IMG/VR virus record: IMGVR_UViG_3300035670_000049
Coordinates: 1-64,000 of that record
Strand: one strand, 5' to 3'
Origin: a virus
Length of the DNA stretch: 64,000 nt
Shown: positions 5,257-53,190 of the stretch, piece by piece
How the letters are laid out: each line of letters begins with the position of its first letter
Numbering within the stretch: position 1 is the stretch's first letter
The notes under the pieces: model-generated
What the model was told of the DNA's origin: nothing
Database searches by the model: none
Seen by the model: only the letters and a program-made list of their open reading frames with translations
Program-made: the position numbers and the translations under genes

Positions 5257-8091
5257 CTAATAATTTATATCCTTCATCATAACATTAATTGTTTCCATAT
5301 CATTTAGTGATAATCCTATTCCAGAATCCTGTAGGGCTAGTGTGATACCTGAATCCTGTAGAGTTATATTGATCGTTTCCTGATCTGAAAGTAGTAGAGA
5401 TATTCTTGATAGATCATTTATCTCTAGTCTCTTTAGGAAGTTAACAATCGTGATTTCTGCTTGTGCCTGAGCAACCTGTGAGGACTTGATAATTAAGGCT
5501 TGTGATTGAGCATATACAGTAATTCCTATACTGGTAATGTATGCCTGAGCATTTGCATATACTGTATAGGCAGTCTGCAATAGAGCAGAAGCCTGTGCAT
5601 ATCCCTGATATGTAGTTTCAATCCAAGCAGTTGATTGCGCTACACTAATAACCTGTACTTTAATGGATACTTGGGCGTTTGCGTATACCTGATACGCTGT
5701 ACGAATAACTGCACTTGCTTGTCCTGTTGCCCAGTAAATTGCCTTTATCGTAGCCTGTGCTTGTGCAAAGGCTTCTGTTTCTGCAATCTTTATATATGCT
5801 TGACCCTGCGCATATGCGTAGTATGTGTTCTTAACCCATACGCTGCTTTGTCCAAATGCCTGATATGCTTGCTTAATGATTCCTTGTGCCTGAGCATAAC
5901 TCTGAACACCGTAAGCATTGATCTTCGCTTGAGCCTGTGCTGGTTGTACAAACGCTCCTGCAATCCAAGTCGCAGCCTGTGCCCATACTTGGTATGTTAC
6001 CTTAATGTCTGCTTGCGCTTGTGCATAAACCTTCGTACCACTTCTAATATATGCTTCGGCTTGTGCAAACACACTGTTTGTTGTGTAAATGTACGCATTT
6101 GCCTGAGCAAATTGTGAGTATGTTGCTTCTATCTGCGCTTGGGCTTGTGCAACATTTTGTACACTAATCTTTATGTACGCTTGTGCTTGGGCAACATTTT
6201 GTACAGTAGACTTTACAGTAGCCGCGCTATTGGCAAATGCATGATACGTTTGACGTAACGTAGCACTAGCCTGTGCGTAAGACTGGTACTGTTGCTTTAC
6301 GCTCGCTTGAGACTGTGCAACTTGCAAATACGTTTGCTTAATTAGACCTTGAGCATTAGCATATGCAAACGAGATTGCTTTGATAGAACCTTGCGCTTGA
6401 GCAAATGCCGCATACGTTGTCTTGATAGAACCTTGTGCTTGAGCAACATTTGTTGTTGTTGTTTCGATCCAAGCCTCTGCCTGAGCATAGACTAGATAGG
6501 TATTCTTGATCAGGGCTTCTGCTTGAGCAGAGACAGGATACGTATGTTTAATATCTGCCTGTGCCTGAGCGAATGACCAACGATGTGCGCCAAAGATAAT
6601 TTCGGCTTCTGCTTGTGCAAAGCCTCTTCTGATCTTTGCATTACCAGCAGGAGCCTGTAGTTCTGCAAATGTTACATAGACTCTTGTTTCTTGGCCCGCA
6701 CTTCCATTGAACAGAATTTGCATATCAGCATAATCTGGAATGGAATTAATCTCTGCCGGTGTAAGAGCATACTCGTAAGTCGTTGGAATATCTGTTAGTA
6801 CCTGTGTTCTAGTTGCAATTAGATTTCCAGCCCGCAGTAATTCAACAGTTAGAGAACCTGTATTTGGCCCCAACTTATAGGCACGATATCGTACAATATG
6901 ATCCTGTCTATATTCAGGCTCATTCATCTGCTCCAAAGCAGTGATATATGTTGTCAGGTTAGGTGCATAATCTGTCAGTATGTAGTCGGTATCTAACGGG
7001 CTAGTTTCATCGATATACTGATAGATATCTATTCCAACGCTTATTGCTGCTTGAGATTGAGCATACGCCTCACGTGTCGCAAGGGTAGATAGAATCTGTG
7101 CTTCTGCCTGTGCGAATACTTGCGCCATTCCTGCGATATATGCTTGACCTTGCGCCCAACTATTTACCGTTGCTTTGATCTGGGACTGTGCCTGAGCGTA
7201 ACGCTTTACTTCTTCTTTGACAGTTGCTTGCGCTTGCGCGAACGTTACGTTATCAGTAACTTTGAGCCAAGTGCTTACCTGAGCGTAAGCATGGTAAGTA
7301 TTTTTGACATTTGCCATTGCTTGTGCGAATGTCAAATATTGTTGACGTATCTGCGCTTGTGCTTGAGCAACTGCTTCAATATCCGTTACTTTGATATAGG
7401 AGTCTGCCTGTGACCAGACATTATATGTAACCGCTCCTACTATCATCTGTGCTTGTGCTTGCGCAAAACTATTAACTAGATAAATAGTAAATGCTTGGGC
7501 TTGTGCAGGATTATAAACTACTTGCTTGACATATGCTAAGGACTGAGCATAAGATTGCTGCGTTATTTTAATATAAGTTTGTGACTGTGCTGATGCATTT
7601 ACTGTAGTAGAACCAGCAGTATAATCTACTGTAATTGATACATAATCAATACGAATTGTTTCTGAGGTAGGGCTGTTTGCGCGGTCATATAAGAAGTGTG
7701 CAAATACTGTTTGATCCCGAAGGTTCTGTAGCGTTGGAATCGTTGTAGCCGTAGATTCGATAACTAGATCGGCTGTGCTGCCAGAGTATTCCCCAATTGC
7801 TCCAACATCGGTTCCAGAGGGATTTTCAATAGTGATATCAATGATGCTTCCGATGCTTGCGCTCAATCCAACCTCTGCGCTTACCTTTACAGAGTTGATC
7901 GTAGCACCGTCAGGAATATCAGAAGTAGTATATGATGGGAACCCAAATCGTATTTCAGCAGTACCGTTTCTGGCGGCTTGGGTATGTGTAGCGTACTGAT
8001 CATCACTAGTCGTACCATAAGCGTTCGTTTGTCCAGTCCATGTACCAACAACATCTGTATAAGAACTAGCGGCTTTAGTTAAAATAGGCAT
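5257..8091 (-). CDS. AQAQA-repeat fibre/adhesin-like protein 1 (944 aa)
   Basis: 14-aa AQAQAxIKxTYxxY repeats plus globular beta domains. Confidence 0.85.
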   Translation of the reverse strand: MPILTKAASSYTDVVGTWTGQTNAYGTTSDDQYATHTQAARNGTAEIRFGFPSYTTSDIPDGATINSVKVSAEVGLSASIGSIIDITIENPSGTDVGAIGEYSGSTADLVIESTATTIPTLQNLRDQTVFAHFLYDRANSPTSETIRIDYVSITVDYTAGSTTVNASAQSQTYIKITQQSYAQSLAYVKQVVYNPAQAQAFTIYLVNSFAQAQAQMIVGAVTYNVWSQADSYIKVTDIEAVAQAQAQIRQQYLTFAQAMANVKNTYHAYAQVSTWLKVTDNVTFAQAQATVKEEVKRYAQAQSQIKATVNSWAQGQAYIAGMAQVFAQAEAQILSTLATREAYAQSQAAISVGIDIYQYIDETSPLDTDYILTDYAPNLTTYITALEQMNEPEYRQDHIVRYRAYKLGPNTGSLTVELLRAGNLIATRTQVLTDIPTTYEYALTPAEINSIPDYADMQILFNGSAGQETRVYVTFAELQAPAGNAKIRRGFAQAEAEIIFGAHRWSFAQAQADIKHTYPVSAQAEALIKNTYLVYAQAEAWIETTTTNVAQAQGSIKTTYAAFAQAQGSIKAISFAYANAQGLIKQTYLQVAQSQASVKQQYQSYAQASATLRQTYHAFANSAATVKSTVQNVAQAQAYIKISVQNVAQAQAQIEATYSQFAQANAYIYTTNSVFAQAEAYIRSGTKVYAQAQADIKVTYQVWAQAATWIAGAFVQPAQAQAKINAYGVQSYAQAQGIIKQAYQAFGQSSVWVKNTYYAYAQGQAYIKIAETEAFAQAQATIKAIYWATGQASAVIRTAYQVYANAQVSIKVQVISVAQSTAWIETTYQGYAQASALLQTAYTVYANAQAYITSIGITVYAQSQALIIKSSQVAQAQAEITIVNFLKRLEINDLSRISLLLSDQETINITLQDSGITLALQDSGIGLSLNDMETINVMMKDINY

Positions 8092-11000
8092 TTAGATCAC
8101 CACCCCTCTCCATCCATCATTGCTTATATCGGCAACAGGATGAACGTGTTGTGGTGTATAAATCTGTGCCTGTGCCTGTGACTGTACGGTATTTGTCGTA
8201 AAGATGTATGCTTCTGCTTGTGCATAAACAACATAGGTTGTCTTTATTAAAGCCCCCGCCTGTGCGTAGGCTTCGATATCCGTTGTCTTTATGTATGCTT
8301 CTGCCTGAGCAAATTGTGAGTAGGTCTGCTTGATAAGGGCTTGCGCCTGAGCGTATGCCTCATTATCAGTTACCTTGATATATGCCTGTGCTTGTGCCCA
8401 GTTATAATAGGTTGCCTTTATTGCAGCCATGCTCTGAGCATAGGCTTCAATATCCCTTACGATAACGTAAGCATTTGCTTGCGCATATCCCTGATAAGTT
8501 TGAAGGGTTAGGGCCTGTGCTTGGGCATAACCATTCAATCCAGAAAGAAGAATGAATGCTTGTGCATTCGCATATCCCTGATAGGTGTTCTCGATCCAAA
8601 CAGATGTTTGTGCAAATCCGTTGTAAGTTGCTTCAATATTCGCAGCAGCCTGAGCATAAGCCTGATAGGTATTCTCAATCCATGCCTGAGCCTGAGCGAA
8701 TTGATTTATAGTAGTTTCAATCCATGCTTGGCTCTGGGCAAATTGTGCTGATGTAGCGGCTATCGTTGCCTGAGCCTGAGCAGACCAAACAACCTGACCA
8801 CTAATATAGGCACCAGATTGTGCGAATGTGTAGGTTGTTGCTTTAACAGTTGATTGCGCTTGTGCATGAACACGAGTCGTGGCAATCTTCGCTTGAGCCT
8901 GAGCATAGGCTTGATATGTCTGGATAATCTTTGCTTCTGCTTGCGAATATGCCTGATATGTTTGCTCGATCCATGCACCAGACTGAGCCCAAACATTATA
9001 GGTCTGTTCAATAGCAGCCTGTGCTTGTGCGTATGCTTGGTACGTTGCTTTAACGTGAGCCTGTGCTTGGGACACAACATAATATGTTTGCTTGATCTGT
9101 GCTTGCGCCTGAGCAAATACAGAGTATGCATTCTCTATCCAAGTCTGCGCTTGCGCATAGCCTTGATAAGTCGTTTTAATCAAAGCACCTGACTGTGCAA
9201 ACTGATTAACAGTTGCCTCAATCCAAGCACCAGTCTGTGCGAAACTGTTGTAAGTCTGCTTGATATCAGACTGTGCTTGTGCGAATAGATTGTACGTCTG
9301 CTCAATCCATGCTTCAGCCTGAGCATATTGCAGATACATTCCTTGAACTAATGCTGCGCCTTGTGCATATGCATCATACGTTGTTTTGATCTGCGCTTGC
9401 GCTTGTGCGAACACATATCGAGTTACAAGACTGATAACGATTTCAGCCTGAGCCTGTGCATATACTTGGTATGTCTGCTTAATCGTAGACTGCGCATTCG
9501 CATAGGCTTGATAGGTATTTTCGATCCATGTTTGTGCTTGCGCATAAACACTATTCAGTGTCTTGATATTTGCTTGCGCTTGGCTATATGCTTGATAGGT
9601 TTGTTTGATATCTGCTTGTGATTGCGCCCACACCTGATACGTTGTTTTTATTTGTGCCTGTGCCTGTGCAAATACTTCAATTTCTGTTGACTTGATGTAT
9701 GCATTTGCTTGTGACCATACCAGATAGGTCTGCTCGACCCACGCCGCTCCCTGAGCGTGTACACGGGTCGTAGCGATCTTCGCCTGAGCCTGAGCCCATA
9801 CCTGATAGGCTTGCTTGATCTGAGCATTAGCCTGTGCCCAATTATTTGTCGTTACCTCAATCCAAGCATTTCCTTGCGCCCATGCTTGATATGTCTGCTT
9901 AATTCGTGCCTGAGCCTGAGCGAAACCTTCGACCTCTGGCATCTTGATATACGCATTTGCCTGAGCCCAACTATTGTATGTTTGCTCAATCCAAGTTGCT
10001 GCCTGAGCATGAACACGGGTTGTAGAAATCTTTGCCCCTGCTTGTGCAAATACCTGATACGTTTTCTTGATACGTGCTTGGCTCTGTGCATATTGAGTAT
10101 AGGTAGCCCGAATAGTTGCCTGTGCTTGCGCGTAGGCTTCGATATCAGTGACTTTGATATAAGCATTTGCTTGTGCAAATACATAGTACGTTTGCTTGAT
10201 ATCGGCTTGTGCTTGTGCCCATTGTCGTGGGATACCGATGATCTGTGCATTAGCCTGTGCAGATACCTTATAAGCAGCGGCTCCTGCCGGTGGACGCTGT
10301 AGATAGGCTTGAGATACAATAAATTTAGCACCACTATCTGGATAGAAGCGTATTCTAAGATCACTATAGTCTGTAATAGCGTTCATTTCAGACTGAGAGA
10401 GTGCTAATTTTACAGTTTCCCAGCTTGAATTTGATATAGATGTATTAGTTATAAAATTAATACCTTGATATAACCTCGGACTAATGGAACCGCTTGCTCC
10501 AAAACGACAAGCAGTTACAACTAGGAAGTGATCTTTTTTCCAAGCAGGAGTTCCAAGGTCTTCAAGTTTTACTTCGACATAGTTAGTCGTACCATCGCTG
10601 ACAATGTAATCTGTGTTATCGAGAATGGCTTCATCGATAGCGCTATATAGATCAGTTGTTACTCCTATGAGAGCAAGAGATTGAGCAAAGGAATTTCTTT
10701 CTGTTGCCCCGGAAATTAGTTCAGCCTGTGCCTGAGCATAACTTTGATAGGTTGCCTTAATCTGTGCCTGTGCTTGCGCGTATGATCTATATGTAGTCTT
10801 GATTGAAGTTTGTGATTGACCATAGCCTTGATAAATCGCTTCAATCCAAGTCTGTGCCTGTGCATAAACTTGATACGCTTGTTTAATAGTAGTTTGTGCT
10901 TGCGCAAATACCACATATGTTGCTTTAATTGTTGACTGTGCTTGAGCGTATGCTTGATATGTCTTTATAATAGATGCTTGAGTTTGTGAGTAGACAAGGG

Positions 11001-14000
11001 AAGTTTTTGCAATAGAGGCTTGTGCTTGTGCAAACGTCGGTCCAATGACTGTTCCGCCAGATGCTGGACGTAATGCTCCAACAACACCAGACCACGCAAG
11101 AGACTGGGCTATTGTACCAGTAATTGTATCAGTAGTACCAGCAGTTGCTTTAATCCCATCTGCTGCCAGTGTATCCTTAATTGCAGAAGATTCAAATACC
11201 TCTGCAAACTCTGTAACAGGCTCATCAGCATCTATAGCAAGACGGGCTGCTGTTGAAGAGTTACAAGCAACACCAACAATTACCATTGCATTATCGGTAA
11301 CTGTGGAAATACCTGTTAAGGTAAATGTTAGAGCCGCAGCACCATCAGTACCAACAGCCGTAACATCAAGCGGATTTGTTGTATCAACTCCACTATATCT
11401 AGCTAAAACGTAGCCAGTATATAATGAGTTACTTGTAGTATAAGTGAAATTTCCCGACCAAGTACTAGTGGCTTTTCTACCGTAAAGATATGTATCTGGG
11501 TTGGTTTGTCCTACAGCCGATCCAATAAGTGTCCAACCATCTGAGGCAAGAGAGACAGTACCCGGACCACCGTTAAATCCAATAGTTAGTACTAGATAAT
11601 CATCTATAGATATTCCTGTAGGATATGTAACCGTATGTGTATATGGTCCTGCCCCTGTTGGAACCCCGCCTCCTGTAGAAAAGGTTTCTCGTACAATTGC
11701 TAAACCTCTTGGGTAGGTTTGTTTAATCTGTGATTGTACCTGTGAAAAGACACTATACACTTGTTTGATTTGTGTCTGAGCCTGAGCGAAGACTCTAGTT
11801 GTAGTAGCACCCCCACCACCGTATAATAGAGGTACAGCGACGAGGGAACGCTCTCGCACCGAATATGTACCCGGCGGAGATACAACAGAAGCATCAAGAT
11901 TAATTGTTCTTGCTGCCCCCGAAGTTAGGGAAACTTTGTTAAAAAATAGTACAGGTTGTAGATCATTAACATCCCAGTTAGACATACCGGGAGCATCATC
12001 GCCATAAGCAGGATCAGATGCCAGCCCACCACCAGATGGGTTGATCTGTAGTCTTGTTTTGAGTAATCTTGTGGAAGTTACTGTAACAAATGCTGTGGTT
12101 AGATATCCAAGAACAAGCCAATCCCCAGTTGTGGATGGGGTTGGGGAAACCGTTGCAACGGTCGTCCATGATGGATCGGTTGCAGGAGTAACATCTCCTG
12201 CTGTTCTCTCATACGCTACTGTACTAAACTTAGATAAATTTAGTGCAAATATGCTTGAGTTGAAAACAGTACCAGCAGTTGTTCCTGTATGTGCAGCATC
12301 TATGGTTACTGTGTGAGATGCATTAGACGGTACATATACTGCCGCCATTACTAGCGGACGGATATCATTAACAATATCCCCACCATCTTCGGTGGTTTCT
12401 ACCAGAGCATTTGCTACAGAATCATTAATTCGTAACTTGACGCTGGAGGTTCCGTCTGTAACTGGGGATAACCGTGTTGCATGGCCTAATATCAGCCAAG
12501 GATCAGTACCATCTGGAGTAAACGTCACAGAGGCTTGGCTAGCATAAGATGCTGTTGTAGTGTAATCTGCTGTAACACTATTGGTATAGTAGTCTGTATT
12601 CTCAGTTAACTCATCAGTAAGCCTGATGGCTACGATCCACGCATCTCCCGCTGTAGTTTGGGAAGCACTTGAATTTCGTACCTGTACTACATAGCGTTCT
12701 GCTGTTCCACCCTGTGTGTGGGTAAACATGAAACCGAATGGGGTTTTAGATGTTGTAAGAATAGATTCGTCAATAGACCCTGTACCATCTGTAAAGATTG
12801 TTGGTGTAGTACCATATCCTACCCGTACTTCAGCCTGAGAAGAAGCAGAGTCATTTTCTATGAAGCCCCCAACAAGAATTAGATATGTCTTATTGGCGAC
12901 CATATTTGTCGATGCAATCTCTGCGGCATCTGTCCATGTCGTACCTAGAACACTGAATCCAAGACCCTCAGAATAGTAGATACTTGCTGGAGTTGTGGAA
13001 CTACTAGAAATCTGCGCTTGGCTTTGGGCAAAAGATTTTCCAACACCAATAATCTGTGCTTGGGCTTGACCTGTTTGTTCAAAATATGCCTGAGATAATT
13101 GAAAATCATCTACTGTAGTAGTTTGTCCAGCATAGGCATTAAAAGCAGTTGCCACATGGCCGATTGGATATGAAACAAAGGAAGACTCATTAGTTATAGT
13201 TACATACGTAGCGGGCTCTGGATCGCCGTCTTTCCAAATCCTAACATAACCTGTTTGATATGTTCCATTATCCGCATGTTTCATCCAGCCTCTAAGCCAT
13301 ATCCAAGTTCCTGCTTGGTAATTTAATATTTCTGCAACACCGCCATTTGCCCCGCCCCATGTAGTATTGACCATTACAACACCGAGGATATTTCCATCGG
13401 CTACTTGGAATGTTCCTCCAAAACCATTACCAGCAGATAGAGAAGTTACAGAGGCATCCGTTCCATCTCGTACTATTACATAACTGTCAGCAGATGTACT
13501 CTCAAACTTAAACTTGAATTTAACCATCCAAAAATCGGGTGCCACAAGTTTTCCAAGGGATGCTCTAGGAGCAGTACCTGAGTTAGTGACGACTAACTGG
13601 GAGCCATCTACATCAAAGTAAGTAGGCTGATCTATAACAGTCCAAGCACCAGCGTTGTCACTTGTACCTAGCCCGTCTGTAACACTTCTTGTAAATGTAT
13701 CGTAAACAGATGAATAAACAGGAGTAGGAAGAATTTTTGCAGTTGCTTGCGCAAATACTCTATTTGTAGTAGAAATAGTTGCTTGGGCTTGTGCAAGACT
13801 ATTTACAACAGGAGCAGTATAATCTACTGTAATTGAAACGTAATCTATACGTGCTGTTTCTGAGGTAGCACTATTTGCTCTATCATATAAAAAGTGAGCA
13901 AATACTGTTTGATCCCGCAGATTCTGGAGCGTCGGCGTCGTCGTCGCGGTGCATTCGATCAGCACGTCGGTCGTACTGCTCGTATCAACCGGCGTGCCAA

Positions 14001-14286
14001 CGTCGGTTCCAGACGGATTTTCTATGGTAATCTGGATAATTGATCCAATACTCTGATTAAGACCAACTTCTGCACTAACTTTGACAGAATTAATAGTAGA
14101 ACCGTCAGGAATATCAGAAGTAGCGTAAGATGGGAATCCATATCTTATTTCAGCAGTACCATTTCGACTCGACAGCGTGATTGAAGCGTACTGATCATCA
14201 CTCGTAGTGCTATAGGCATTTGTTTGGCTAGACCATGTATCAACAACATCTGTGTAGGAGTTAGCAGCCTTAGTTAAAATAGCCAT
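8092..14286 (-). CDS. AQAQA-repeat fibre/adhesin-like protein 2 (2064 aa)
   Basis: Same repeat; N-terminal ~160 aa paralogous to protein 1; DTFTRSV..GLG lectin-like domain. Confidence 0.85.
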   Translation of the reverse strand: MAILTKAANSYTDVVDTWSSQTNAYSTTSDDQYASITLSSRNGTAEIRYGFPSYATSDIPDGSTINSVKVSAEVGLNQSIGSIIQITIENPSGTDVGTPVDTSSTTDVLIECTATTTPTLQNLRDQTVFAHFLYDRANSATSETARIDYVSITVDYTAPVVNSLAQAQATISTTNRVFAQATAKILPTPVYSSVYDTFTRSVTDGLGTSDNAGAWTVIDQPTYFDVDGSQLVVTNSGTAPRASLGKLVAPDFWMVKFKFKFESTSADSYVIVRDGTDASVTSLSAGNGFGGTFQVADGNILGVVMVNTTWGGANGGVAEILNYQAGTWIWLRGWMKHADNGTYQTGYVRIWKDGDPEPATYVTITNESSFVSYPIGHVATAFNAYAGQTTTVDDFQLSQAYFEQTGQAQAQIIGVGKSFAQSQAQISSSSTTPASIYYSEGLGFSVLGTTWTDAAEIASTNMVANKTYLILVGGFIENDSASSQAEVRVGYGTTPTIFTDGTGSIDESILTTSKTPFGFMFTHTQGGTAERYVVQVRNSSASQTTAGDAWIVAIRLTDELTENTDYYTNSVTADYTTTASYASQASVTFTPDGTDPWLILGHATRLSPVTDGTSSVKLRINDSVANALVETTEDGGDIVNDIRPLVMAAVYVPSNASHTVTIDAAHTGTTAGTVFNSSIFALNLSKFSTVAYERTAGDVTPATDPSWTTVATVSPTPSTTGDWLVLGYLTTAFVTVTSTRLLKTRLQINPSGGGLASDPAYGDDAPGMSNWDVNDLQPVLFFNKVSLTSGAARTINLDASVVSPPGTYSVRERSLVAVPLLYGGGGATTTRVFAQAQTQIKQVYSVFSQVQSQIKQTYPRGLAIVRETFSTGGGVPTGAGPYTHTVTYPTGISIDDYLVLTIGFNGGPGTVSLASDGWTLIGSAVGQTNPDTYLYGRKATSTWSGNFTYTTSNSLYTGYVLARYSGVDTTNPLDVTAVGTDGAAALTFTLTGISTVTDNAMVIVGVACNSSTAARLAIDADEPVTEFAEVFESSAIKDTLAADGIKATAGTTDTITGTIAQSLAWSGVVGALRPASGGTVIGPTFAQAQASIAKTSLVYSQTQASIIKTYQAYAQAQSTIKATYVVFAQAQTTIKQAYQVYAQAQTWIEAIYQGYGQSQTSIKTTYRSYAQAQAQIKATYQSYAQAQAELISGATERNSFAQSLALIGVTTDLYSAIDEAILDNTDYIVSDGTTNYVEVKLEDLGTPAWKKDHFLVVTACRFGASGSISPRLYQGINFITNTSISNSSWETVKLALSQSEMNAITDYSDLRIRFYPDSGAKFIVSQAYLQRPPAGAAAYKVSAQANAQIIGIPRQWAQAQADIKQTYYVFAQANAYIKVTDIEAYAQAQATIRATYTQYAQSQARIKKTYQVFAQAGAKISTTRVHAQAATWIEQTYNSWAQANAYIKMPEVEGFAQAQARIKQTYQAWAQGNAWIEVTTNNWAQANAQIKQAYQVWAQAQAKIATTRVHAQGAAWVEQTYLVWSQANAYIKSTEIEVFAQAQAQIKTTYQVWAQSQADIKQTYQAYSQAQANIKTLNSVYAQAQTWIENTYQAYANAQSTIKQTYQVYAQAQAEIVISLVTRYVFAQAQAQIKTTYDAYAQGAALVQGMYLQYAQAEAWIEQTYNLFAQAQSDIKQTYNSFAQTGAWIEATVNQFAQSGALIKTTYQGYAQAQTWIENAYSVFAQAQAQIKQTYYVVSQAQAHVKATYQAYAQAQAAIEQTYNVWAQSGAWIEQTYQAYSQAEAKIIQTYQAYAQAQAKIATTRVHAQAQSTVKATTYTFAQSGAYISGQVVWSAQAQATIAATSAQFAQSQAWIETTINQFAQAQAWIENTYQAYAQAAANIEATYNGFAQTSVWIENTYQGYANAQAFILLSGLNGYAQAQALTLQTYQGYAQANAYVIVRDIEAYAQSMAAIKATYYNWAQAQAYIKVTDNEAYAQAQALIKQTYSQFAQAEAYIKTTDIEAYAQAGALIKTTYVVYAQAEAYIFTTNTVQSQAQAQIYTPQHVHPVADISNDGWRGVVI

Positions 14287-14287
14287 C

Positions 14288-17200
14288 TTATATCACCACC
14301 CTTACCCAGTTATTTGTGGTGATATCAAGGACTGGTCGCTGATATACCGGAATATATACCAAGGCTAATGCTTGGGCACTGGCATACGTTGTTACAACCG
14401 CTGCTAAGATGGTTGCTTGTGATTGCGCCAATAAATTAGATGTTATTCGTATGTGTGCTTGTGCTTGGCTATAATTTAGCGTTATAGCCTTTATCGCTGC
14501 TTGGGCTTGTGCAAATGTTGGACCTACTACACTACCAGTTGTGGCTAGAAAGTCATCAAAAATGGCTGCGCTAGAACTAATGGAACTACGGATAGAGTAC
14601 GTAGCCGTACCGACCCCGCCAGATTGAATCTGGTTGGCAGACGTATTATCGGTAGTTTCGATATCCCATGTACTAGGTTCTGGCTGATCAAGCGTCCATG
14701 CACGGATTTTAAAAGTAGTGGGCGAATAGCCTGAAACATTAACCCTATATCTAGCATTATATGATGCCGTGTACGCTGTATATGTAACACTGGCTACTAT
14801 AGAAGCGACACCGGCAGTTATCCTATACAATATAACCGCATTGTCAGAAACTGTTACTCTGTATGCATCAGCCCCGGAACCCTTGCGAAGAAGAATGCCA
14901 GAATATACTGAGCCATAAACAACTGAGCCATCTTCTTCATCATACGAGTCTTTATCAGAAGTCAGATAAACATCGCCATCACCAAATGAAACCCCTGATG
15001 CTTGAGCGGAAAGAAGTCTAGAACCACTTGGCAGTTGAACACCGTGTCTGCCAGTCCCATCGCCCACATATGTAAAAGTGTAGCCTCCAGTTCCGATTAA
15101 AGTAGTAACATCCCAAGTCCCCCCAATATCGAGGCTAGAGCCATCAATATTGGTAGCAGGAGAACCGGCATAGGACTCTTGGGCAACGACTGTACTGCCA
15201 CCAAATGGGTAAGTCTGTTTAATCCAGACAGATGCTTGTGCATACGCTCTACTTGTTGCTTTAATAGTAGCAGCAGATTGAGCAAATGCCGGATAGGTTG
15301 CCTTAACTCTTGTCTGCGCTTGTGCATAGGCTTGACTGGTCTTAGTGATTGCAGCATTAGCCTGTGAGTAGACTTGATACGTTTGCTTTATCCGTGCATT
15401 AGATTGCGCCCAAACTTGATAGGTTGTCTTGATCTGTGTTTGTGCTTGTGCGTGATTATAGACAGTGCCTTTAATCTGTGCCTGTGCTTGTGCAGATACT
15501 TTATAGTTAGCAACAGAAGAAACTATCTCTGCTTGTGCTTGCGCGAATGGAGAACCTACAACCTCTCCTGCATATTGTACTGCAAGAAGATCATCATGGT
15601 ACGCAGGACTAGTTATGGCTGTAAGTCCCCAATAACCAGAGACTCTTTGGTGGGTGGCGGTATTATCTGTTGTTTCAATAATAGGAACTTTACCGGAAAA
15701 ATCTGAAGTATCTGATCTAAAAACTCTTAGGCGTGTTGGAGATTGTCCTATAACTTCAAAGCATATGTAACTTCCTGATCCAGCAACAGTAGATGCTAGT
15801 ACAGAACCGTGTCTATATAATGATACAGTACTTCCACTTAATCTAACAGAGTAATCATAATTAGGACTAGGAACTATATTTAAACGTAGACCAATATACG
15901 GAGTTGTTCCTGATAAATGTGCTTGTATATAACCATTACCAATAGTATTTACATCAGCCAATGTAGCATAATATGTCCCAAAAGTTTCTATGCTATCTAT
16001 CCGATCTAAATCCCTATCTAATCTCCAGTCGCTGGTAGCAGTCCATGTACCACCTATCTCTGCGGTATGGGTGCTAAGATCAACTAGTCCTGTTCCTTCT
16101 TCTGTAAAGGAATCTTGTGCGATTGTAGAAGGATTTCCCCAAGGATTAAATGACGGATAGGTTTGCTTGATACTTGTCTGTGCTTGAGCCGAAGATGCTC
16201 CCTTATAAACAATTTTAGCCCGTGCTTGAGCATGTCTTAACCAATCGATAGCAATTCCATTTTTAAATTCCAGATCATCTAAAGTTACTAAGATAGGGAG
16301 ATTAGATACGCTACTACTAGCATACGCTCTTATCAGAACTGGCCCCGGAGTAACTGTATATGGAGTAGAAACAGTAGTTTCAGTTGTTGCTGCCGTAGAC
16401 CAAAGAGGTTCTTCTGTGCCAACTTTCCACAGTTTTCTTCTGTTTAAAGTATACATACTTGTAGGAGATGTTGGAGGACGAGTAATTGCCTGTATTCTAA
16501 AGTTCCAAGACTCTCCTGCTGCATATGGAATGGAATTTGTTCCGCTACTATTACCACTTCCTATTCTTGAGGCCACCATAGTAAAAGTACTGCTAGTACT
16601 AAAGGTAATCTGGGCTCCAAACGACTTGGTAGTAATAGAAGGATCTTTTGTAGAGTAACCGCCCATAACGTGTACGATTATGCTATCAGTAGCAGGTATT
16701 TTATCTAAGGAGATTATTCCTCTTACCTCGTACCCATGTTCATGAACAGATGTTTTAGGTACTATTATAAGTTGTTCTCCACTTGTTATTAAATTAATCG
16801 TTCCGCTTGTTCCATTTACATCAAAATTTGATAGCGTACCGGCTTCTAATGTATATACATCGCCACTGTCATTTGCGCCCCAACCATCGGTAACGGTTCT
16901 ATTGAAGTAATCTGTTAAGTGGAATCGCTCTCCAGCAATACATGCCGCAACCAGTGCTGACCTTTCCATCGGAGCCTTAAGATATGCTTCTGCTTGAGCA
17001 TAAGTGAGTTTAATCTTAGATTCGATTAAAGCAGTTGTTTGAGCAACCTGATTACCTACTGGATAGAAAGTAAAATCATCGATAGAGGCAGTAATACTTG
17101 TTGTTGTGCTACTATTAATATAGCAACCTACCCAGTTAAATATGCTCGCTTGACTTTCTGAAAGTGTTGCACCAGATGCTGCCCAATCAGGCTCTGCATC

Positions 17201-19345
17201 TCCATCTTTCCAAGCCTTTATTCTTATGCTTAATCCTGTTTTTCTTGCCTTTAAAATCCATGTATCTCCAGCAACATATGTGCCATAGTTAGTATTTGGT
17301 GTAGTAGAACCATATTTCCATACTCTAAGTGTTATAGTACCTGTAGAACTTACATCTATAGCTGGATGTATATAATTACTACTTCCTGTTTCTTGAGCAG
17401 TATTTTTATTTAAGAAAACTCCTACTGATATAGTAGATGAAGGAAGTACATCTAAACTAAATTTTAAAGATACTTCCCAATCTGGGTAGTATACAGAAGG
17501 ACCAGTTTGTTTTGTCATAAAAACTTTAGAGTTACTAGTACTGGGACCTACGTAACTTTGGTTCCCATTGACTCCAACTCCAGTATTACCATTTAAACTA
17601 AGCCAAGTATCTCCGTTTTCTGCTGTTCCCCATCCACTACCGGAAGAAACAGTTCTGGTAAACGTATCAAGTAGTGTTCCATAGACAGGAAGTATCTGGG
17701 CCATCGCAAGTGCATGAGCCCTTGTCGGAACAATCCATGCTGCTGCTTGCGCAAATTGTTGCTTTATATTGGAATCGATTAAAGCATTTGCTTGAGCGTA
17801 ATTATTAGTATTACTGATTATGATGTATGTTTGTGCTTGTGCTGGACTCTGTATCCCATTTAAGATAAGAGCATTAGCCTGAGCATACGCTTGCATTGCT
17901 GCCTTAATCGTACCTTGAGACTGAGCATAAGATTGAATAATTATTTTTATTCTTGCTTGTGCTTGTGCTACTTGGAAATAGGTTTGTTTAACTAAACCTT
18001 GTACCATAGAATGTACAAAGGAACTTGCTTTAACTGAGGATGAAGCCTGAGCGTAGGACTGCATGGGTGCAAAAATAGTTGCTTGGGCTTGCGCAACGGG
18101 CTCTGCTGTCCATCTAGTAACTTTGAAGTTATCAATTTTTACAACAGTGTTAGTAGAAATTCCGGCACCAAGAACACGAAGGATTGTATGTCCGGGTGGT
18201 GAATCTGTTGTAGGAATAGGAGTATGAATAGCACTATAAGAATATACCGTTTCTGGTGCTGCTTTGTTCCATGTGCGAGAATCGGCTTGTACTTTTCCTG
18301 TACTTGTATTCCAAAAAACATAAGCGTCATAAACCCAAACATCGCCTAAATTACCGTAAGTTGCTCCAGAACTCCAAGTATTAGCGGCACTTCCATATCC
18401 AGCAGCAAATTGAATTGTTTTATTTGATTGTATAATAATTCCAGCAGTTTTTGCACCATATACTGTTGTATCAAGAGTAGACCTACCGCCGTCATAAACA
18501 AATATATTAATTCCAACATCAGAAAGTTCGGTAAGCAATCCATATTCAAACGATACTCTCCACTTAGCCGGTGCAACCATATTTGTTAAATGTATAAACA
18601 TTTCATCTTGGTTAATTAAATCTACTCTTGCTTCTCCAGACGTTACTGACCAGCCAGCAGCAGAAGATGAAACCTTCCAATCCCCAGCATTATCAGATGT
18701 TCCTAAGCCGGGAGATACAGTACGAGTGAATGTATCAAATACTTCAGAATATTGTGGAGTAGTAAAAATTAATGCCATTGCCAGTGCATAAGCCCTAGCA
18801 GTAACTTTAATTTGTGTTTGTGCTTGAGCGTAGGAAGGAACAATACCTTTTATCTGTGCTTGAGATTGAGAATAACTTCGATAGGTTGTAACAGGAGCAT
18901 CAGGCACGGATAGATAAACTTCATAAACGCGGATAGTTTCTATTCCACCAATCGTAGTCTGAGCCATTCTAACACGAAGATCACTATAGTTTGTGATGGA
19001 ATCTGCTTCAGTTGATGTAAGCGTATATGTATAATCAGTAGCGGTTGTACGGCTAATCGTTTCTGCGGCAGAAGTTGCTCTTAATGTTGCACCTTCATAT
19101 AAATAGAACGTTAATTTTTCTCCTGCTGCCGAACCATCTTGTACTATTGCACGTACAGTTAATACGTGATTCGTATTAGATGCTGGATCAGTAACACTTC
19201 CTAATTGTAACTCACACGCAAGCGTTGATCCAAGCGGACCATTTATATAGGTTGAATCAGACGAATCATTTACTTTTGAATATAAAGGGCTTGTCCACCA
19301 TGTATTAATTGTAACGTCGCTGATAGGTCTAGCAAACTGTGCCAT
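14288..19345 (-). CDS. AQAQA-repeat fibre/adhesin-like protein 3 (1685 aa)
   Basis: Three D(T/Y)F(T/N)RTV..G(W/L)G domains strung on AQAQA linkers. Confidence 0.85.
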   Translation of the reverse strand: MAQFARPISDVTINTWWTSPLYSKVNDSSDSTYINGPLGSTLACELQLGSVTDPASNTNHVLTVRAIVQDGSAAGEKLTFYLYEGATLRATSAAETISRTTATDYTYTLTSTEADSITNYSDLRVRMAQTTIGGIETIRVYEVYLSVPDAPVTTYRSYSQSQAQIKGIVPSYAQAQTQIKVTARAYALAMALIFTTPQYSEVFDTFTRTVSPGLGTSDNAGDWKVSSSAAGWSVTSGEARVDLINQDEMFIHLTNMVAPAKWRVSFEYGLLTELSDVGINIFVYDGGRSTLDTTVYGAKTAGIIIQSNKTIQFAAGYGSAANTWSSGATYGNLGDVWVYDAYVFWNTSTGKVQADSRTWNKAAPETVYSYSAIHTPIPTTDSPPGHTILRVLGAGISTNTVVKIDNFKVTRWTAEPVAQAQATIFAPMQSYAQASSSVKASSFVHSMVQGLVKQTYFQVAQAQARIKIIIQSYAQSQGTIKAAMQAYAQANALILNGIQSPAQAQTYIIISNTNNYAQANALIDSNIKQQFAQAAAWIVPTRAHALAMAQILPVYGTLLDTFTRTVSSGSGWGTAENGDTWLSLNGNTGVGVNGNQSYVGPSTSNSKVFMTKQTGPSVYYPDWEVSLKFSLDVLPSSTISVGVFLNKNTAQETGSSNYIHPAIDVSSTGTITLRVWKYGSTTPNTNYGTYVAGDTWILKARKTGLSIRIKAWKDGDAEPDWAASGATLSESQASIFNWVGCYINSSTTTSITASIDDFTFYPVGNQVAQTTALIESKIKLTYAQAEAYLKAPMERSALVAACIAGERFHLTDYFNRTVTDGWGANDSGDVYTLEAGTLSNFDVNGTSGTINLITSGEQLIIVPKTSVHEHGYEVRGIISLDKIPATDSIIVHVMGGYSTKDPSITTKSFGAQITFSTSSTFTMVASRIGSGNSSGTNSIPYAAGESWNFRIQAITRPPTSPTSMYTLNRRKLWKVGTEEPLWSTAATTETTVSTPYTVTPGPVLIRAYASSSVSNLPILVTLDDLEFKNGIAIDWLRHAQARAKIVYKGASSAQAQTSIKQTYPSFNPWGNPSTIAQDSFTEEGTGLVDLSTHTAEIGGTWTATSDWRLDRDLDRIDSIETFGTYYATLADVNTIGNGYIQAHLSGTTPYIGLRLNIVPSPNYDYSVRLSGSTVSLYRHGSVLASTVAGSGSYICFEVIGQSPTRLRVFRSDTSDFSGKVPIIETTDNTATHQRVSGYWGLTAITSPAYHDDLLAVQYAGEVVGSPFAQAQAEIVSSVANYKVSAQAQAQIKGTVYNHAQAQTQIKTTYQVWAQSNARIKQTYQVYSQANAAITKTSQAYAQAQTRVKATYPAFAQSAATIKATSRAYAQASVWIKQTYPFGGSTVVAQESYAGSPATNIDGSSLDIGGTWDVTTLIGTGGYTFTYVGDGTGRHGVQLPSGSRLLSAQASGVSFGDGDVYLTSDKDSYDEEDGSVVYGSVYSGILLRKGSGADAYRVTVSDNAVILYRITAGVASIVASVTYTAYTASYNARYRVNVSGYSPTTFKIRAWTLDQPEPSTWDIETTDNTSANQIQSGGVGTATYSIRSSISSSAAIFDDFLATTGSVVGPTFAQAQAAIKAITLNYSQAQAHIRITSNLLAQSQATILAAVVTTYASAQALALVYIPVYQRPVLDITTNNWVRVVI

Positions 19346-49599: not shown

Positions 49600-50031
49600 T
49601 TACTCTTCTCCAATATTTGTTGCTGTCGGTATATAACCTTGCCAGTCTGGAAAGAATCCAAACTCGGGTAGACCGGGAAGATTGCCCCAATCCTGAATGG
49701 TATCAAACATATCAGATGGACTATCTCCCCAACTATCTCCACCTGTAATTAGTACATCATACTTACCGATATTAATCATATAACAATGACGATCATAGTT
49801 ACCATCAGCGACTGATCGAATATCATCGTGACAACAAAGCAAACGATGCTTCAATTCTTCAAGAGCCGAACAATCATCGTCATCACTATGAATCATTTGC
49901 ATATACTCAAACTCAGGATGATCTTTAAGTTGTTCCTCTGTTAGATTCTCAATGTATGCTCTTGCAGCATCCCAATCAGGACGCTTATCTTTAGCCCACC
50001 AAACAAAGTTTAGAAGTAGATCATTACCCAT
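49600..50031 (-). CDS. Acidic hypothetical protein
   Basis: Coupled ORF. Confidence 0.75.
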   Translation of the reverse strand: MGNDLLLNFVWWAKDKRPDWDAARAYIENLTEEQLKDHPEFEYMQMIHSDDDDCSALEELKHRLLCCHDDIRSVADGNYDRHCYMINIGKYDVLITGGDSWGDSPSDMFDTIQDWGNLPGLPEFGFFPDWQGYIPTATNIGEE

Positions 50032-50204
50032 TATGTTAGGACCCTCGCAACTACCTTATCATTACATAGAAGTCGCTTCTTATACCCATTACCTACATTT
50101 AGAGCATTGAAGTATAAAATAGCTTGGACTTTATTAGTAAATGACCATCGAGTTTTATATGCTGATTTATAACGTCCAATCTGAACTTTATATAAATCAT
50201 CCAT
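50031..50204 (-). CDS. Hypothetical protein (start MDDLYKV)
   Basis: ATG overlaps the orphan gene-end copy at 50197-50247. Confidence 0.7.
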   Translation of the reverse strand: MDDLYKVQIGRYKSAYKTRWSFTNKVQAILYFNALNVGNGYKKRLLCNDKVVARVLT

Positions 50205-50250
50205 AAACAACTTCACCTAGCACAATCTTCTGAATGATTACATCTGCCAT
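50197..50250 (-). other. Orphan copy of gene 51555-51974 C-terminus (possible 17-aa minigene)
   Basis: Encodes (M)ADVIIQKIVLGEVVYG-stop. Confidence 0.85.
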
Positions 50251-50321
50251 AGCCCATATCCTTTCTATATTGTAGATTATGATACCGGGGGATGGTCATA
50301 ATCTATTTAGGAGGTATTAAA

Positions 50322-51041
50322 ATGTTTAAATATTCAGGAAACAAACAAAGGTTATTGCATCTACTACGCCAACCACCTAAAGGTCCGATCATAGAGCCTT
50401 TTGCTGGAAGCGCAAGGTACAGTTTGAATTACGATTTAGATGCTATTTTATTTGAAAAAAACAAAGACGTATACGATTTATGGGACTGGTTAATAAACGA
50501 TGCTACTAAGAAAGATTTACTTGAATTAGAAAAAATGAAGCAACCGGAAAAGGTGGATATTCGATTGCTTAACCTTCCAAAACCGCAGGAAACTCTATTT
50601 AGGTTGACGTGCGCAAGCGTTTACGTAGGTCAGTTATCCTCATGGATTTCGTACCCTCAACATAAAGTAGATTTTTCTAGATTGATTAGTTATTTACCCC
50701 AAATAAAATATCGATTTACTTTAGGAGGCACAGATTACTTACAATCAGCAGGATTGCAAGGAACGTACTTTATTGATCCGCCTTATATGGGCACAAGTGG
50801 AAATTATATAGATGGAAGCAATAAAAAAGAATTAAATAGCGTAAACTTAAATACTTTTACAGAGTATATAAATAGTGTTGACTCTCCTATTATATTTACG
50901 TATGGCACGGATGCTCAGGAAGTTTTTCCGCAATATCAATGGGAATTAGTTTTGATGAGGCGCGTCCCTAAAATTAGAACCGGAGGTACTGCGAATAGGA
51001 TCGATTATGTCTTTTATAAGAATTTTTCTATACATGGTTAA
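50322..51041 (+). CDS. DNA adenine methyltransferase (Dam/D12-like)
   Basis: YSGNK, EPFAGS, DPPY; GGAGG SD before ATG 50322. Confidence 0.88.
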   Translation: MFKYSGNKQRLLHLLRQPPKGPIIEPFAGSARYSLNYDLDAILFEKNKDVYDLWDWLINDATKKDLLELEKMKQPEKVDIRLLNLPKPQETLFRLTCASVYVGQLSSWISYPQHKVDFSRLISYLPQIKYRFTLGGTDYLQSAGLQGTYFIDPPYMGTSGNYIDGSNKKELNSVNLNTFTEYINSVDSPIIFTYGTDAQEVFPQYQWELVLMRRVPKIRTGGTANRIDYVFYKNFSIHG

Positions 51042-51140
51042 ATCAGAAATTTCCTCAAAATCTTCGTCTGTTTCAATAATAAAGCAGCCGTCGATAGATG
51101 AAAATGTTTCTCCATCATTAAGAACAACGTATTGTTTCAT
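50946..51140 (-). CDS. Small hypothetical protein
   Basis: GGAG SD before MKQYVV; overlaps methylase end. Confidence 0.5.
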   Translation of the reverse strand: MKQYVVLNDGETFSSIDGCFIIETDEDFEEISDLTMYRKILIKDIIDPIRSTSGSNFRDAPHQN

Positions 51141-51161
51141 TTTACTCCTCGGAGGTAAATA

Positions 51162-51578
51162 ATGTCTAAAGAACGTCAACGCGAATGGTATTATGAGAAC
51201 CATGAAAGAGAGTTAGCCAAACGTAGAGCATATCAAGAGGCTAATCGAGAACGAGTACGCGAAATGAATAGAGATAATCATCGAAGGCACCAGCAAGAGG
51301 ACCCCGAAGGTTATAAACTTGTTAGGAGATTTCGTCAACTAAAGCATAAATATGGTATTACACAGCAACAATACGACGATATGTATAACTCTCAGCAAGG
51401 ATTGTGTGCAATATGTATACAGCCCTTTGATATTTTTGCCGTAGATCATAATCATATTACAGGTCGAATACGTGGATTACTGTGTAAATCATGTAATACC
51501 TTACTTGCTAATGCTAAAGAAGATTCATCGCTACTGCAAAGAGCAATTGACTATCTAGCCGTACACGACCTCACCTAG
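51162..51578 (+). CDS. Endonuclease VII-family (homing-type) nuclease
   Basis: CAIC...AVDHNH.TG.IRGLLC..CN; GGAGG SD. Confidence 0.9.
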   Translation: MSKERQREWYYENHERELAKRRAYQEANRERVREMNRDNHRRHQQEDPEGYKLVRRFRQLKHKYGITQQQYDDMYNSQQGLCAICIQPFDIFAVDHNHITGRIRGLLCKSCNTLLANAKEDSSLLQRAIDYLAVHDLT

Positions 51579-51974
51579 AACTATTTTTTGGATTATAACG
51601 TCCGCTCCGATGGCATCGTAATCAATATCTTCTCTGATACCCTTGTTGTTGACAGTATATGAGAATAGATGGCCGTAGTTTTCTAGCGCCCAATCTGTAG
51701 CATCAACCAACTTCTGTAGCGTAATTGAAGTAAATGGCCGCTTCTCTTCTTCTGCTTGACCATCCTCATCATCACGCATCCAAATTAGAGGAGTATCAAG
51801 AGTTAGATCAGGATTGATTTTATCGGTATCGGGCTCTCCATCCTCATCACATACATACCACCAATACCACTTGTATCTTTCAATTTGCGCCCAAAATCCT
51901 CTAGCACTCCAATCCATACCATCACTGAGAATATTCAGCAATAGAGGTACGGGATAACGTCCAGCAATTTGCAT
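51555..51974 (-). CDS. Conserved phage hypothetical protein; target of recoded duplication
   Basis: Ends DIDYDAIGADVIIQKIVLGEVVYG. Confidence 0.8.
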   Translation of the reverse strand: MQIAGRYPVPLLLNILSDGMDWSARGFWAQIERYKWYWWYVCDEDGEPDTDKINPDLTLDTPLIWMRDDEDGQAEEEKRPFTSITLQKLVDATDWALENYGHLFSYTVNNKGIREDIDYDAIGADVIIQKIVLGEVVYG

Positions 51975-52204
51975 TAGGTTAGTTCCTTTACAGTAAATGC
52001 TGTATCTACAGCAAACTCGTTGGCAAATCCATCAGTAATTTCCTGCCATGCTTCTGCGGGCATATGCCCAATAGCATTAGCAATAGCATCTACTTCTGTA
52101 ATGCGCCCCTTTCGATACATTGGAGCAAAGCCAATTCTAGTATGCAGATTAATTGTAATTGTTACGTCGTAGTCTTTCTCTTCAAAATAAGACTTCTTTG
52201 CCAT
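51974..52204 (-). CDS. Hypothetical protein
   Basis: TAATG coupling. Confidence 0.7.
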   Translation of the reverse strand: MAKKSYFEEKDYDVTITINLHTRIGFAPMYRKGRITEVDAIANAIGHMPAEAWQEITDGFANEFAVDTAFTVKELT

Positions 52205-52431
52205 TACTCTTTACCCACTACTTCAATTACTGATACATCGGCATCTTCCCAGCAGTCAGGATGCCACTTATCAGCCATCAATTTCCCGTTATATTTAAAA
52301 CGTTCAAGGACAACCATATCGCCCTCTTCAATATCTTCATTACATCCAGCACAATGTTGAGTCTGCTCCCCACTATATTCAAACTTAATTATCTCAGGAG
52401 GAAGATACTCAATGACGGGAGGCTCATGCAT
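52204..52431 (-). CDS. Hypothetical protein, Cys/His zinc motif
   Basis: CAGC...WHPDC. Confidence 0.7.
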   Translation of the reverse strand: MHEPPVIEYLPPEIIKFEYSGEQTQHCAGCNEDIEEGDMVVLERFKYNGKLMADKWHPDCWEDADVSVIEVVGKE

Positions 52432-52785
52432 TCAAATCACCCAATCCCTAGTATCCAGATATGTATCTTCCATATGTCCACAATGGGTAGAAGCCCCACA
52501 GATATCACACAGGTCCATCATATTACAATGGTTGCAATACATCAGTGATTCCCATGCCACCACTTTGGTAGAATGGATATACCTCAGATCAGCATCAGGA
52601 TTTACTTTGGGTAGAATTAGATGGACAGAGCCATCATAAAGAATCTTACCCTCATAAAAGGTTCCATTCTCAGGAGTTCTAATCTTAGTTGCATCGGGAC
52701 CTTGCTTACGGTCCCATAGTTTATTGGTCCAATCAATAGTATAGACTGATTCAGACTCTGTAGTATACCGACGAATAATTCTCAT
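52432..52785 (-). CDS. Hypothetical protein
   Basis: ATGA coupling. Confidence 0.7.
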   Translation of the reverse strand: MRIIRRYTTESESVYTIDWTNKLWDRKQGPDATKIRTPENGTFYEGKILYDGSVHLILPKVNPDADLRYIHSTKVVAWESLMYCNHCNMMDLCDICGASTHCGHMEDTYLDTRDWVI

Positions 52786-52973
52786 CTCTCATACCACTCC
52801 ACATCGCCCTCTAAATCCTCAAGGTATTCGGGATCATTCCACTCAGAATCTAAAGTAGTCTCATTACCATCCAAATAATCCTGATACTTTTGCTTGGCTT
52901 CCTCTAAAGAAGCAGCCTCAATTGTATAAATTCTATGCCAACGTTCTGCCTGACTAACTTGATAGATAGGCAT
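52782..52973 (-). CDS. Small acidic hypothetical protein
   Basis: IEAASLEEA motif, coupled. Confidence 0.7.
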   Translation of the reverse strand: MPIYQVSQAERWHRIYTIEAASLEEAKQKYQDYLDGNETTLDSEWNDPEYLEDLEGDVEWYER

Positions 52974-52974
52974 C

Positions 52975-53190
52975 TTATTTCACCACATTCTCTAGTGCAA
53001 TAGAGGCTGAGAAATATCTCTTAGATTTACCCTCAGTCTCATCTTCCCACTCTTCAATATGTCCAATAAGAGAATTGATCAACTGATTCTTCAGCTTTTC
53101 TGTATAGTCAAACTGTGCCTCTTCGATCCATTGCCTCTCATCATCCCACAGAGTTTCATAAAAGGTAAGTCTAAGATCAAGTTGCAGCAT
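52975..53190 (-). CDS. Hypothetical protein
   Basis: Coupled ORF. Confidence 0.7.
   Translation of the reverse strand: MLQLDLRLTFYETLWDDERQWIEEAQFDYTEKLKNQLINSLIGHIEEWEDETEGKSKRYFSASIALENVVK

Follow-up and report, generated by a model that had tools for sequence, protein, structure and literature searches.

Why would a phage encode the end of one gene twice, in almost entirely different codons, on either side of a nuclease and a methylase gene? The question is raised by a locus at positions 50031–51974 of a 64,000-nucleotide stretch of viral DNA, hereafter the window (positions 1 to 64,000 of IMG/VR record IMGVR_UViG_3300035670_000049), whose source genome has a size of 120,336 bp and carries terminal repeats. 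On the minus strand, the peptide ADVIIQKIVLGEVVYG followed by a stop codon is encoded at 51605–51555 and again at 50247–50197, as confirmed by translation of both copies. The first copy is the 3' end of a 139-amino acid (aa) open reading frame (ORF; 51974–51555), hereafter gene X, in which the duplicated peptide corresponds to codons 124–139 (51605–51558); the second copy is an orphan. Fourteen of the 16 codons are changed synonymously, amounting to 14 of 48 coding positions and exclusively third positions. Only CTA (Leu) and GGT (Gly) are common to both copies, the stop codon is TAG in gene X vs TGA in the orphan, and the longest identical run is 8 nt. The insert separating the copies, hereafter the cassette, comprises about 1.36 kb with an endonuclease VII (Endo VII)-motif nuclease gene, a 65-aa ORF, and a Dam-like methylase gene. 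In a scan of the 120-kb genome for duplicated peptides of at least 12 residues, ADVIIQKIVLGEVVYG was the only one left once the terminal repeats and the paralogous tail-fibre-like repeats were set aside, and the DNA identity of its two copies (0.71) was the lowest among all peptide duplicates of the genome. The genomes of two relatives, scanned likewise, yielded no comparable duplicate. The duplication is not due to chance. A first-pass annotation of the window had reported the duplicated peptide, its 14 changed codons, the differing stops, and the methylase in between, all of which were confirmed, and had interpreted them as traces of a mobile homing cassette, an interpretation that is partly supported by the analyses described here. 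We consider it probable, though far from certain, that a homing-endonuclease cassette entered gene X near codons 119–124 together with a foreign, presumably cleavage-resistant gene end, and that the native end persists downstream of it as a relic.

Comparison with cassette-free relatives distinguishes the two gene ends. Identical codons were counted at same-residue sites between gene X of the window and six close relatives. Over codons 1–118 (51621..51974, minus strand; phrog_2355), 57% of codons (246/429) are identical between the window and the relatives, and 50% among the relatives themselves. Over codons 119–139, which together with the TAG stop occupy 51555..51620 (minus strand), identity to the relatives is 16% (19/117), as compared to 56% among the relatives. 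This drop has a pooled Fisher p of 7e-16 and p values of 0.03 to 2e-5 in the six single comparisons. The codons of the orphan are identical to those of relatives L061, L003, and L004 at 15/16, 13/15, and 12/16 sites, respectively, vs 1/15 to 3/16 for the working end of gene X and the same relatives. Cassette-free relatives with a single gene end in the spelling of the copy at 50197 had been predicted by the first-pass annotation and were thereby found. Judged by its codons, the orphan is the native end of gene X, and the working end is foreign or recoded. Homology of the orphan to the relatives begins exactly at codon 124. In gene X itself, per-codon inspection places the switch at about codons 119–121 (TAC, GCC, and ATC in the window vs TAT, GCT, and ATT in the relatives), and native-like similarity resumes in blastn upstream of about 51613; the foreign tract therefore begins a few codons upstream of the duplicated part. 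Such a start is the pattern expected of a break near codons 119–124, slight resection, and repair from a donor. The postulated recoding of the replacement end thus stands as far as the end is foreign or recoded and sets in with a sharp break near codons 119–124. The identity of the peptide in two diverged copies, on the other hand, needs no special recoding process, because the C-terminus is the most conserved part of the gene X protein family. On average, synonymous sites at the 3' end of gene X are not hyper-conserved across the family (56% vs 50%), although some pairs are near-identical there.

With 26 matches, the family of phage proteins that includes gene X is small. The cassette is missing in 12 of 12 gene X relatives, as determined from their DNA or gene tables; gene X is directly followed by the next gene, and a nuclease or methylase was found at the gene X locus of none (0/12). 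Relatives of gene X in IMG/VR and Joint Genome Institute (JGI) metagenomes likewise yielded cassette-free loci only. Homologous unoccupied alleles are present in related phages (12/12), including the complete, syntenic 119,870-bp phage L003/G001, in which gene X is followed by a homologue of the native 57-aa downstream gene of the window (50031..50204, minus strand) with an identical 8-nt overlap. This overlap (ATGGnTRA) between gene X and the next gene is kept in most relatives (gene X ends of L002, L003, L004, L005, and L061) though the following gene differs, and a part of the C-terminal peptide, LGEVVYG, doubles as ribosome site and start of the next gene. The gene X homologues L003 (4968–5570), P0013, and P0011 contain a mid-protein insertion of 55–75 residues with several cysteines, some of them in CxxC-like pairs, which is possibly a zinc-binding module. 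The AlphaFold model of gene X is confident (pLDDT 94, pTM 0.88); a comparison with the Protein Data Bank (PDB) gave no convincing fold match (Foldseek E of at least 0.5; best VIA-align Z of 4.3). Because the last helix of the model (residues 121–133) falls within the replaced part, a truncated gene X protein would probably fail.

The duplication could in principle have arisen during assembly, if a chimeric contig had been built from two strains that differ in their gene X alleles. The sequence comes from a metagenome assembly and the supporting runs are all from one study, but independent contigs of three further runs of that study span both junctions at 100% identity, which makes a chimera unlikely. 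The junction of orphan and methylase was bridged by a contig covering 50037–51116 and the junction of nuclease and gene X by contigs covering 51420–53000 and 51482–51632, with zero differences. In addition, neither cassette gene is disrupted, and the genes overlap tidily. We regard an assembly artefact as extremely improbable.

The nuclease gene (51162..51578, plus strand) is intact and encodes a 138-aa protein with the DHHRN-type Endo VII motif (PF02945, E 1e-22, 80 bits; phrog_2914, E 8e-32 over the full length). Residues C81, C84, D95, H96, H98, R103, C107, C110, and N111 align with T4 endonuclease VII. It is the sole gene of its kind in the source genome. Among related phages, G001 has no match to the nuclease and G002–G004 carry family members at other loci; because of this patchy occurrence at other loci, the nuclease is regarded as an accessory gene and not as the phage resolvase. 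The Endo VII-family genes of these related phages, which are 105–117 kb in size, are located at G002:C1:42688–42984 and 105317–105745, G003:C1:2269–2526, and G004:C1:49043–49252. As had been noted in the first pass, the 3' end of the nuclease gene lies antisense to the end of gene X. The overlap comprises 7 codons and the stop (24 nt) in codon register, and the TAG stop of the nuclease is complementary to CTA, the Leu codon that was left unchanged. Because the nuclease ORF physically extends into the replacement end, both belong to a single unit. Nuclease homologues found elsewhere are in unrelated contexts and co-oriented with their neighbours. Mobility by homing, as proposed in the first pass, thus gains from a nuclease family that includes a proven homing enzyme and from the catalytic residues, and loses from being known as a single instance.

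The codons of the working end are informative about its origin. Two independent encodings of the peptide under the codon usage of the phage would be expected to share 6.4–7.0 codons, and two are shared (P 0.016, or 0.006 if the orphan is kept constant). Rare codons are used in the working end: among all 16-codon windows taken from long ORFs of the genome, its mean codon preference ranks in the lowest 1.7%. The G+C content of the working end at third codon positions (GC3) is 0.52, vs 0.33 for the genome and 0.25–0.31 for the cassette genes. To a modest degree, these data fit selection for dissimilarity from the native end better than import from the donor of the cassette genes. They bear on a second explanation, that of a one-off illegitimate recombination with a divergent donor that had a nuclease/methylase island downstream of its own gene X. 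The left crossover would have been homologous inside gene X and the right junction non-homologous, at recipient codon 124 by chance; the element would not be adapted to carrying a spare end, and the ATG and ribosome site of the orphan would be due to chance or later selection. Such an event would account for a single known instance and for a cassette that is composite (see below). Any donor would encode so conserved a peptide, the differing downstream genes among relatives imply that a donor would often be without right-hand homology, and the higher GC3 of the tail could reflect donor codon usage. The tail is, however, less like the native end than independent draws, and its GC3 departs from that of cassette genes expected from the same donor. 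An in-frame ATG and ribosome site abutting codon 124 exactly are also unlikely by chance. A one-off recombination, unlikely in our view but to be taken seriously as a rival, furthermore overlaps with entry by homing, as a nuclease-made break would still be its likeliest trigger.

The orphan is preceded solely by an ATG (50250–50248) and the ribosome site AAAGGA (50264–50259; given as AAGGA in the first pass). The site is of the same type as that at the start of gene X and similarly spaced, and the start signals abut codon 124 exactly. The feature as a whole (50197..50250, minus strand) hence reads as ATG, native gene X codons 124–139, and TGA. Between the orphan and the methylase gene lies a 71-nt spacer (50251..50321) with divergent ribosome sites, GGAGG for the methylase (plus strand) and AAAGGA for the orphan (minus strand). 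Comparison of 50248–50321 with all fetched DNA revealed no source or similarity. No homology was found to extend upstream of the orphan, and a candidate resemblance of GCTATG to native GCTATTGGA failed on alignment. The ATG of the next gene (50204–50202) overlaps the last codons of the orphan by the native 8 nt, in agreement with the first-pass annotation, and is gone from the working end (TAC GGC TAG, no ATG). The likely ribosome site of the next gene, AGGTGA, lies inside the orphan as well. Because both ribosome site and ATG of the next gene are within the orphan, its retention is explicable by these alone. From its sequence, it is plausible that the orphan is in addition translated as a 17-codon minigene that keeps the translational coupling of the next gene.

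The remaining cassette genes point to a composite origin. The D12-class (Dam-like) N6-adenine DNA methyltransferase gene (50322..51041, plus strand; 239 aa, intact) has its true start at 50322 behind GGAGG and is identified by PF02086 (26.6 bits vs a cut-off of 22) and the motifs EPFAGSA (SAM-binding) and DPPY (catalytic). It has more than 1000 homologues of similar full length, is missing from four related phage genomes, and gave no match in a PDB sequence search; it is probably cargo. The 65-aa ORF (50946..51143, minus strand) and the nuclease gene start back to back, and at its other end the ORF shares 96 nt with the 3' end of the methylase gene. In L026, the closest methylase homologue (61% identity), the same convergent small ORF is present, and the nuclease and gene X are not beside it; the methylase and small ORF are therefore regarded as a module of their own. 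The counterpart in L026 (841–1041, minus strand) has the same start and stop in an unrelated context, and its residue changes relative to the 65-aa ORF are mostly conservative. The third-position pattern cannot separate the 65-aa ORF from the plus-strand frame, because the third positions coincide. Its product might regulate the methylase or act as its partner. At the position that the nuclease holds in the window, L026 has a GC-rich hairpin with a T-run (AAGGGCTAGC...GCTAGCCCTT; 1066–1150). The G+C content of the cassette is slightly below that of its flanks, which is not diagnostic, and a promoter and terminator scan, in which counts did not exceed shuffled expectation, was left unused.

A nuclease and a methylase that are adjacent on one strand could also form a restriction-modification or competition module, with the methylase protecting the phage, the nuclease attacking host or rival DNA at short sites, and the duplication being an insertion scar. 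The PADLOC matches to REase_II (E 2e-6) and MTase_II (E 6e-17) are weak but in line with such a module, and in a PDB sequence search the nuclease matched the restriction enzyme Hpy99I best; the study of the cyanophage enzyme F-CphI also places putative restriction and homing enzymes in a shared clade (PMC6083498). The restriction enzyme matches are, however, limited to the catalytic motif of about 40 residues. The pairing is not conserved either: Endo VII genes were found in 0 of 9 methylase-homologue loci and methylase genes in 0 of 21 nuclease-homologue loci. This lack of co-occurrence (0/30 loci) argues against a conserved Type II restriction-modification pair, for which a conserved linkage of the two genes with matching specificity would be expected, and beside the closest methylase homologue the small ORF occurs and the nuclease does not. 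Moreover, a restriction-modification or competition function would not account for a replacement end that has diverged synonymously and is joined to the nuclease ORF. We thus judge this explanation to be quite improbable. The "EndoVII/Dam cassette" of the first-pass annotation is accurate in that the genes are adjacent and intact, and needs qualification as a unit, since it is probably composite, with methylase and small ORF recurring without the nuclease. A group I or II intron or an intein does not fit the locus: Rfam gave no intron match at E of at most 1, the gene X stop precedes the insert, and the cassette genes run opposite to gene X.

Entry by homing could have proceeded as follows. 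The nuclease would cut cassette-free gene X alleles near codons 119–124, and the break would be repaired from a cassette-bearing genome, with the left end pairing within gene X upstream of the break. Synthesis would then copy the foreign end (codons ~119–139), the nuclease gene, the small ORF, and the methylase gene, whereupon the right break end would rejoin at native codon 124, which would be kept as a relic. Gene X would emerge as a full-length chimera, with the cassette and then its 16 native terminal codons downstream. A replacement end that departs from the native one in almost all synonymous positions would not restore the target site. It would also not pair with the relic and would in this way avoid short-patch repair or deletion of the cassette. 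The relic may serve as the right-hand homology arm in later rounds, and with its ATG and AAAGGA may be translated as the minigene described above, thereby preserving translational coupling.

Several observations weigh against this scenario. The same phage was found with the cassette in four runs of one study, and no contig joined across the cassette; the missing empty allele of this phage is a weak negative, as assembled contigs drop rare variants. An exact search of IMG/VR for the recoded tail identified no second genome, and the four other Endo VII genes of related phages had no flanking duplicates in a flank-vs-flank translated search, within the sensitivity of that search. The scenario thus applies to a single instance without repeated, independent occurrence, which is again a weak negative because the databases hold few relatives; a blastn search of the 4-kb region against phage GenBank in distant mode gave no match. 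Searches for the nuclease itself returned no close homologue (53% identity at best, over part of the protein), and its best PDB sequence match is a restriction enzyme, if in the catalytic motif only. Family conservation alone predicts an identical peptide, and the statistical case for excess recoding is modest and was made post hoc. Finally, the probably composite cassette may, as far as its homologues indicate, not move as one unit.

Outside this locus, the window encodes three very large ORFs (5257–19345, minus strand; 944, 2064, and 1685 aa) with QAQA.../TTY-type repeated motifs. These motifs are common to all three and to related phages, and the proteins are probably fibre or other structural proteins.

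If entry by homing is true, phage homing endonucleases would be able to settle inside protein genes by means of a differently spelled spare end, needing neither a self-splicing intron nor an intein. Experimental documentation of this strategy is confined to fungal mitochondria and the nuclei of yeasts. Short orphaned gene ends, and codon usage that turns odd locally, beside phage nuclease genes would then be accounted for. Since the relic marks the cut site, nucleases still uncharacterised could have their targets located by this sequence signature, and a route by which methylases and other cargo genes hitch-hike between phages would become apparent. The present example is compact with all parts intact, and its empty allele can be deduced as gene X codons 1–123 plus the relic. 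The cassette may have moved repeatedly. More tentatively, we suggest as a possibility a class of phage homing elements that invades genes without intron or intein and combines a replacement end selected for maximal synonymous difference with relic start signals and cargo. The maximal difference would block self-cleavage, short-patch repair, and repeat-mediated loss at once. The start signals would convert the displaced native end into a translated minigene and so maintain the coupling of the next gene, and a methylase would be one kind of cargo. If such a class exists, the window would represent it in a clean, recent, and wholly intact form.

A literature search of incomplete coverage found no description of such a layout in phages, but similar arrangements are known from fungi. 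WHO elements of Torulaspora and Lachancea yeasts consist of an endonuclease gene and an alternative 3' half of FBA1 (PMC7282813; bioRxiv 10.64898/2026.08.13.744650). Their integration generates a chimeric functional host gene with the original 3' fragment downstream, beginning at the cleavage site, and the alternative 3' part has diverged and resists the enzyme that the element encodes (10.64898/2026.08.13.744650). The window resembles these elements in the nuclease beside an alternative 3' gene part, the chimeric full-length gene X, and the relic extending from the break point downstream. WHO elements differ in their LAGLIDADG and zinc-finger nucleases, their eukaryotic nuclear location, the replacement of half of FBA1, and their occurrence in clusters, and cleavage was shown for WHO6. 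The window has an Endo VII motif in a phage, 16–21 replaced codons, an antisense overlap, a methylase and small ORF, and a relic with its own start signals. With PF02945 instead of LAGLIDADG and a C-terminal zinc finger, its nuclease is not a member of the WHO family but an analogue only.

Mobile endonuclease ORFs (mORFs) of fungal mitochondria, which bring along a foreign C-terminus, offer a second parallel. They are known from atp6 of Allomyces macrogynus (Paquin, Laforest & Lang 1994, as cited in PMC3630166) and from Glomus atp6, atp9, cox2, and nad3, where a hybrid gene with inserted C-terminus is followed by an endonuclease ORF and the native C-terminus (PMC3630166). DNA identity to relatives is 91–98% for the native and 64–81% for the inserted copy, and the peptides are 94–100% identical (PMC3630166). 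The window shares this pattern of a native copy near its relatives in DNA, a diverged inserted copy, and a preserved peptide. Several endonuclease ORFs of mORFs are in phase with their mitochondrial host gene, whereas the window, located in a phage, has its nuclease on the opposite strand and extra cargo.

Among phages, free-standing homing endonucleases are the closest comparison. F-CphI reportedly lies downstream of psbA and cuts the intron-less psbA allele. As summarised in its title and abstract, it is a proven free-standing cyanophage homing endonuclease of the DHHRN/Endo VII-motif family, and neither mentions a replacement gene end or relic (PMC6083498). The window nuclease likewise belongs to PF02945, has the D/H/H/R/N residues and zinc cysteines, is free-standing, and adjoins its presumed target gene. 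In T4-like phages, intron-less homing is carried out by free-standing seg and mob endonucleases (reviewed in PMC2988022). As in the window, a selfish nuclease lies between phage genes, flanking markers are co-converted, and the variant flank is presumed to be self-protective. In seg and mob homing, by contrast, both crossovers are in homologous flanks, there is no duplicated end or relic, and the nuclease is located between genes and not inside one. MobA with the gene 60 bypass is said to be a T4-like case of intron-less homing.

By analogy with the WHO elements and fungal mitochondrial mORFs, which operate in this manner, the mechanism that we propose is not new in kind. It departs from the known cases in the family of the nuclease and its antisense overlap with the host gene, in how short the replaced segment is, in having a methylase as cargo, and in a relic equipped with start signals.

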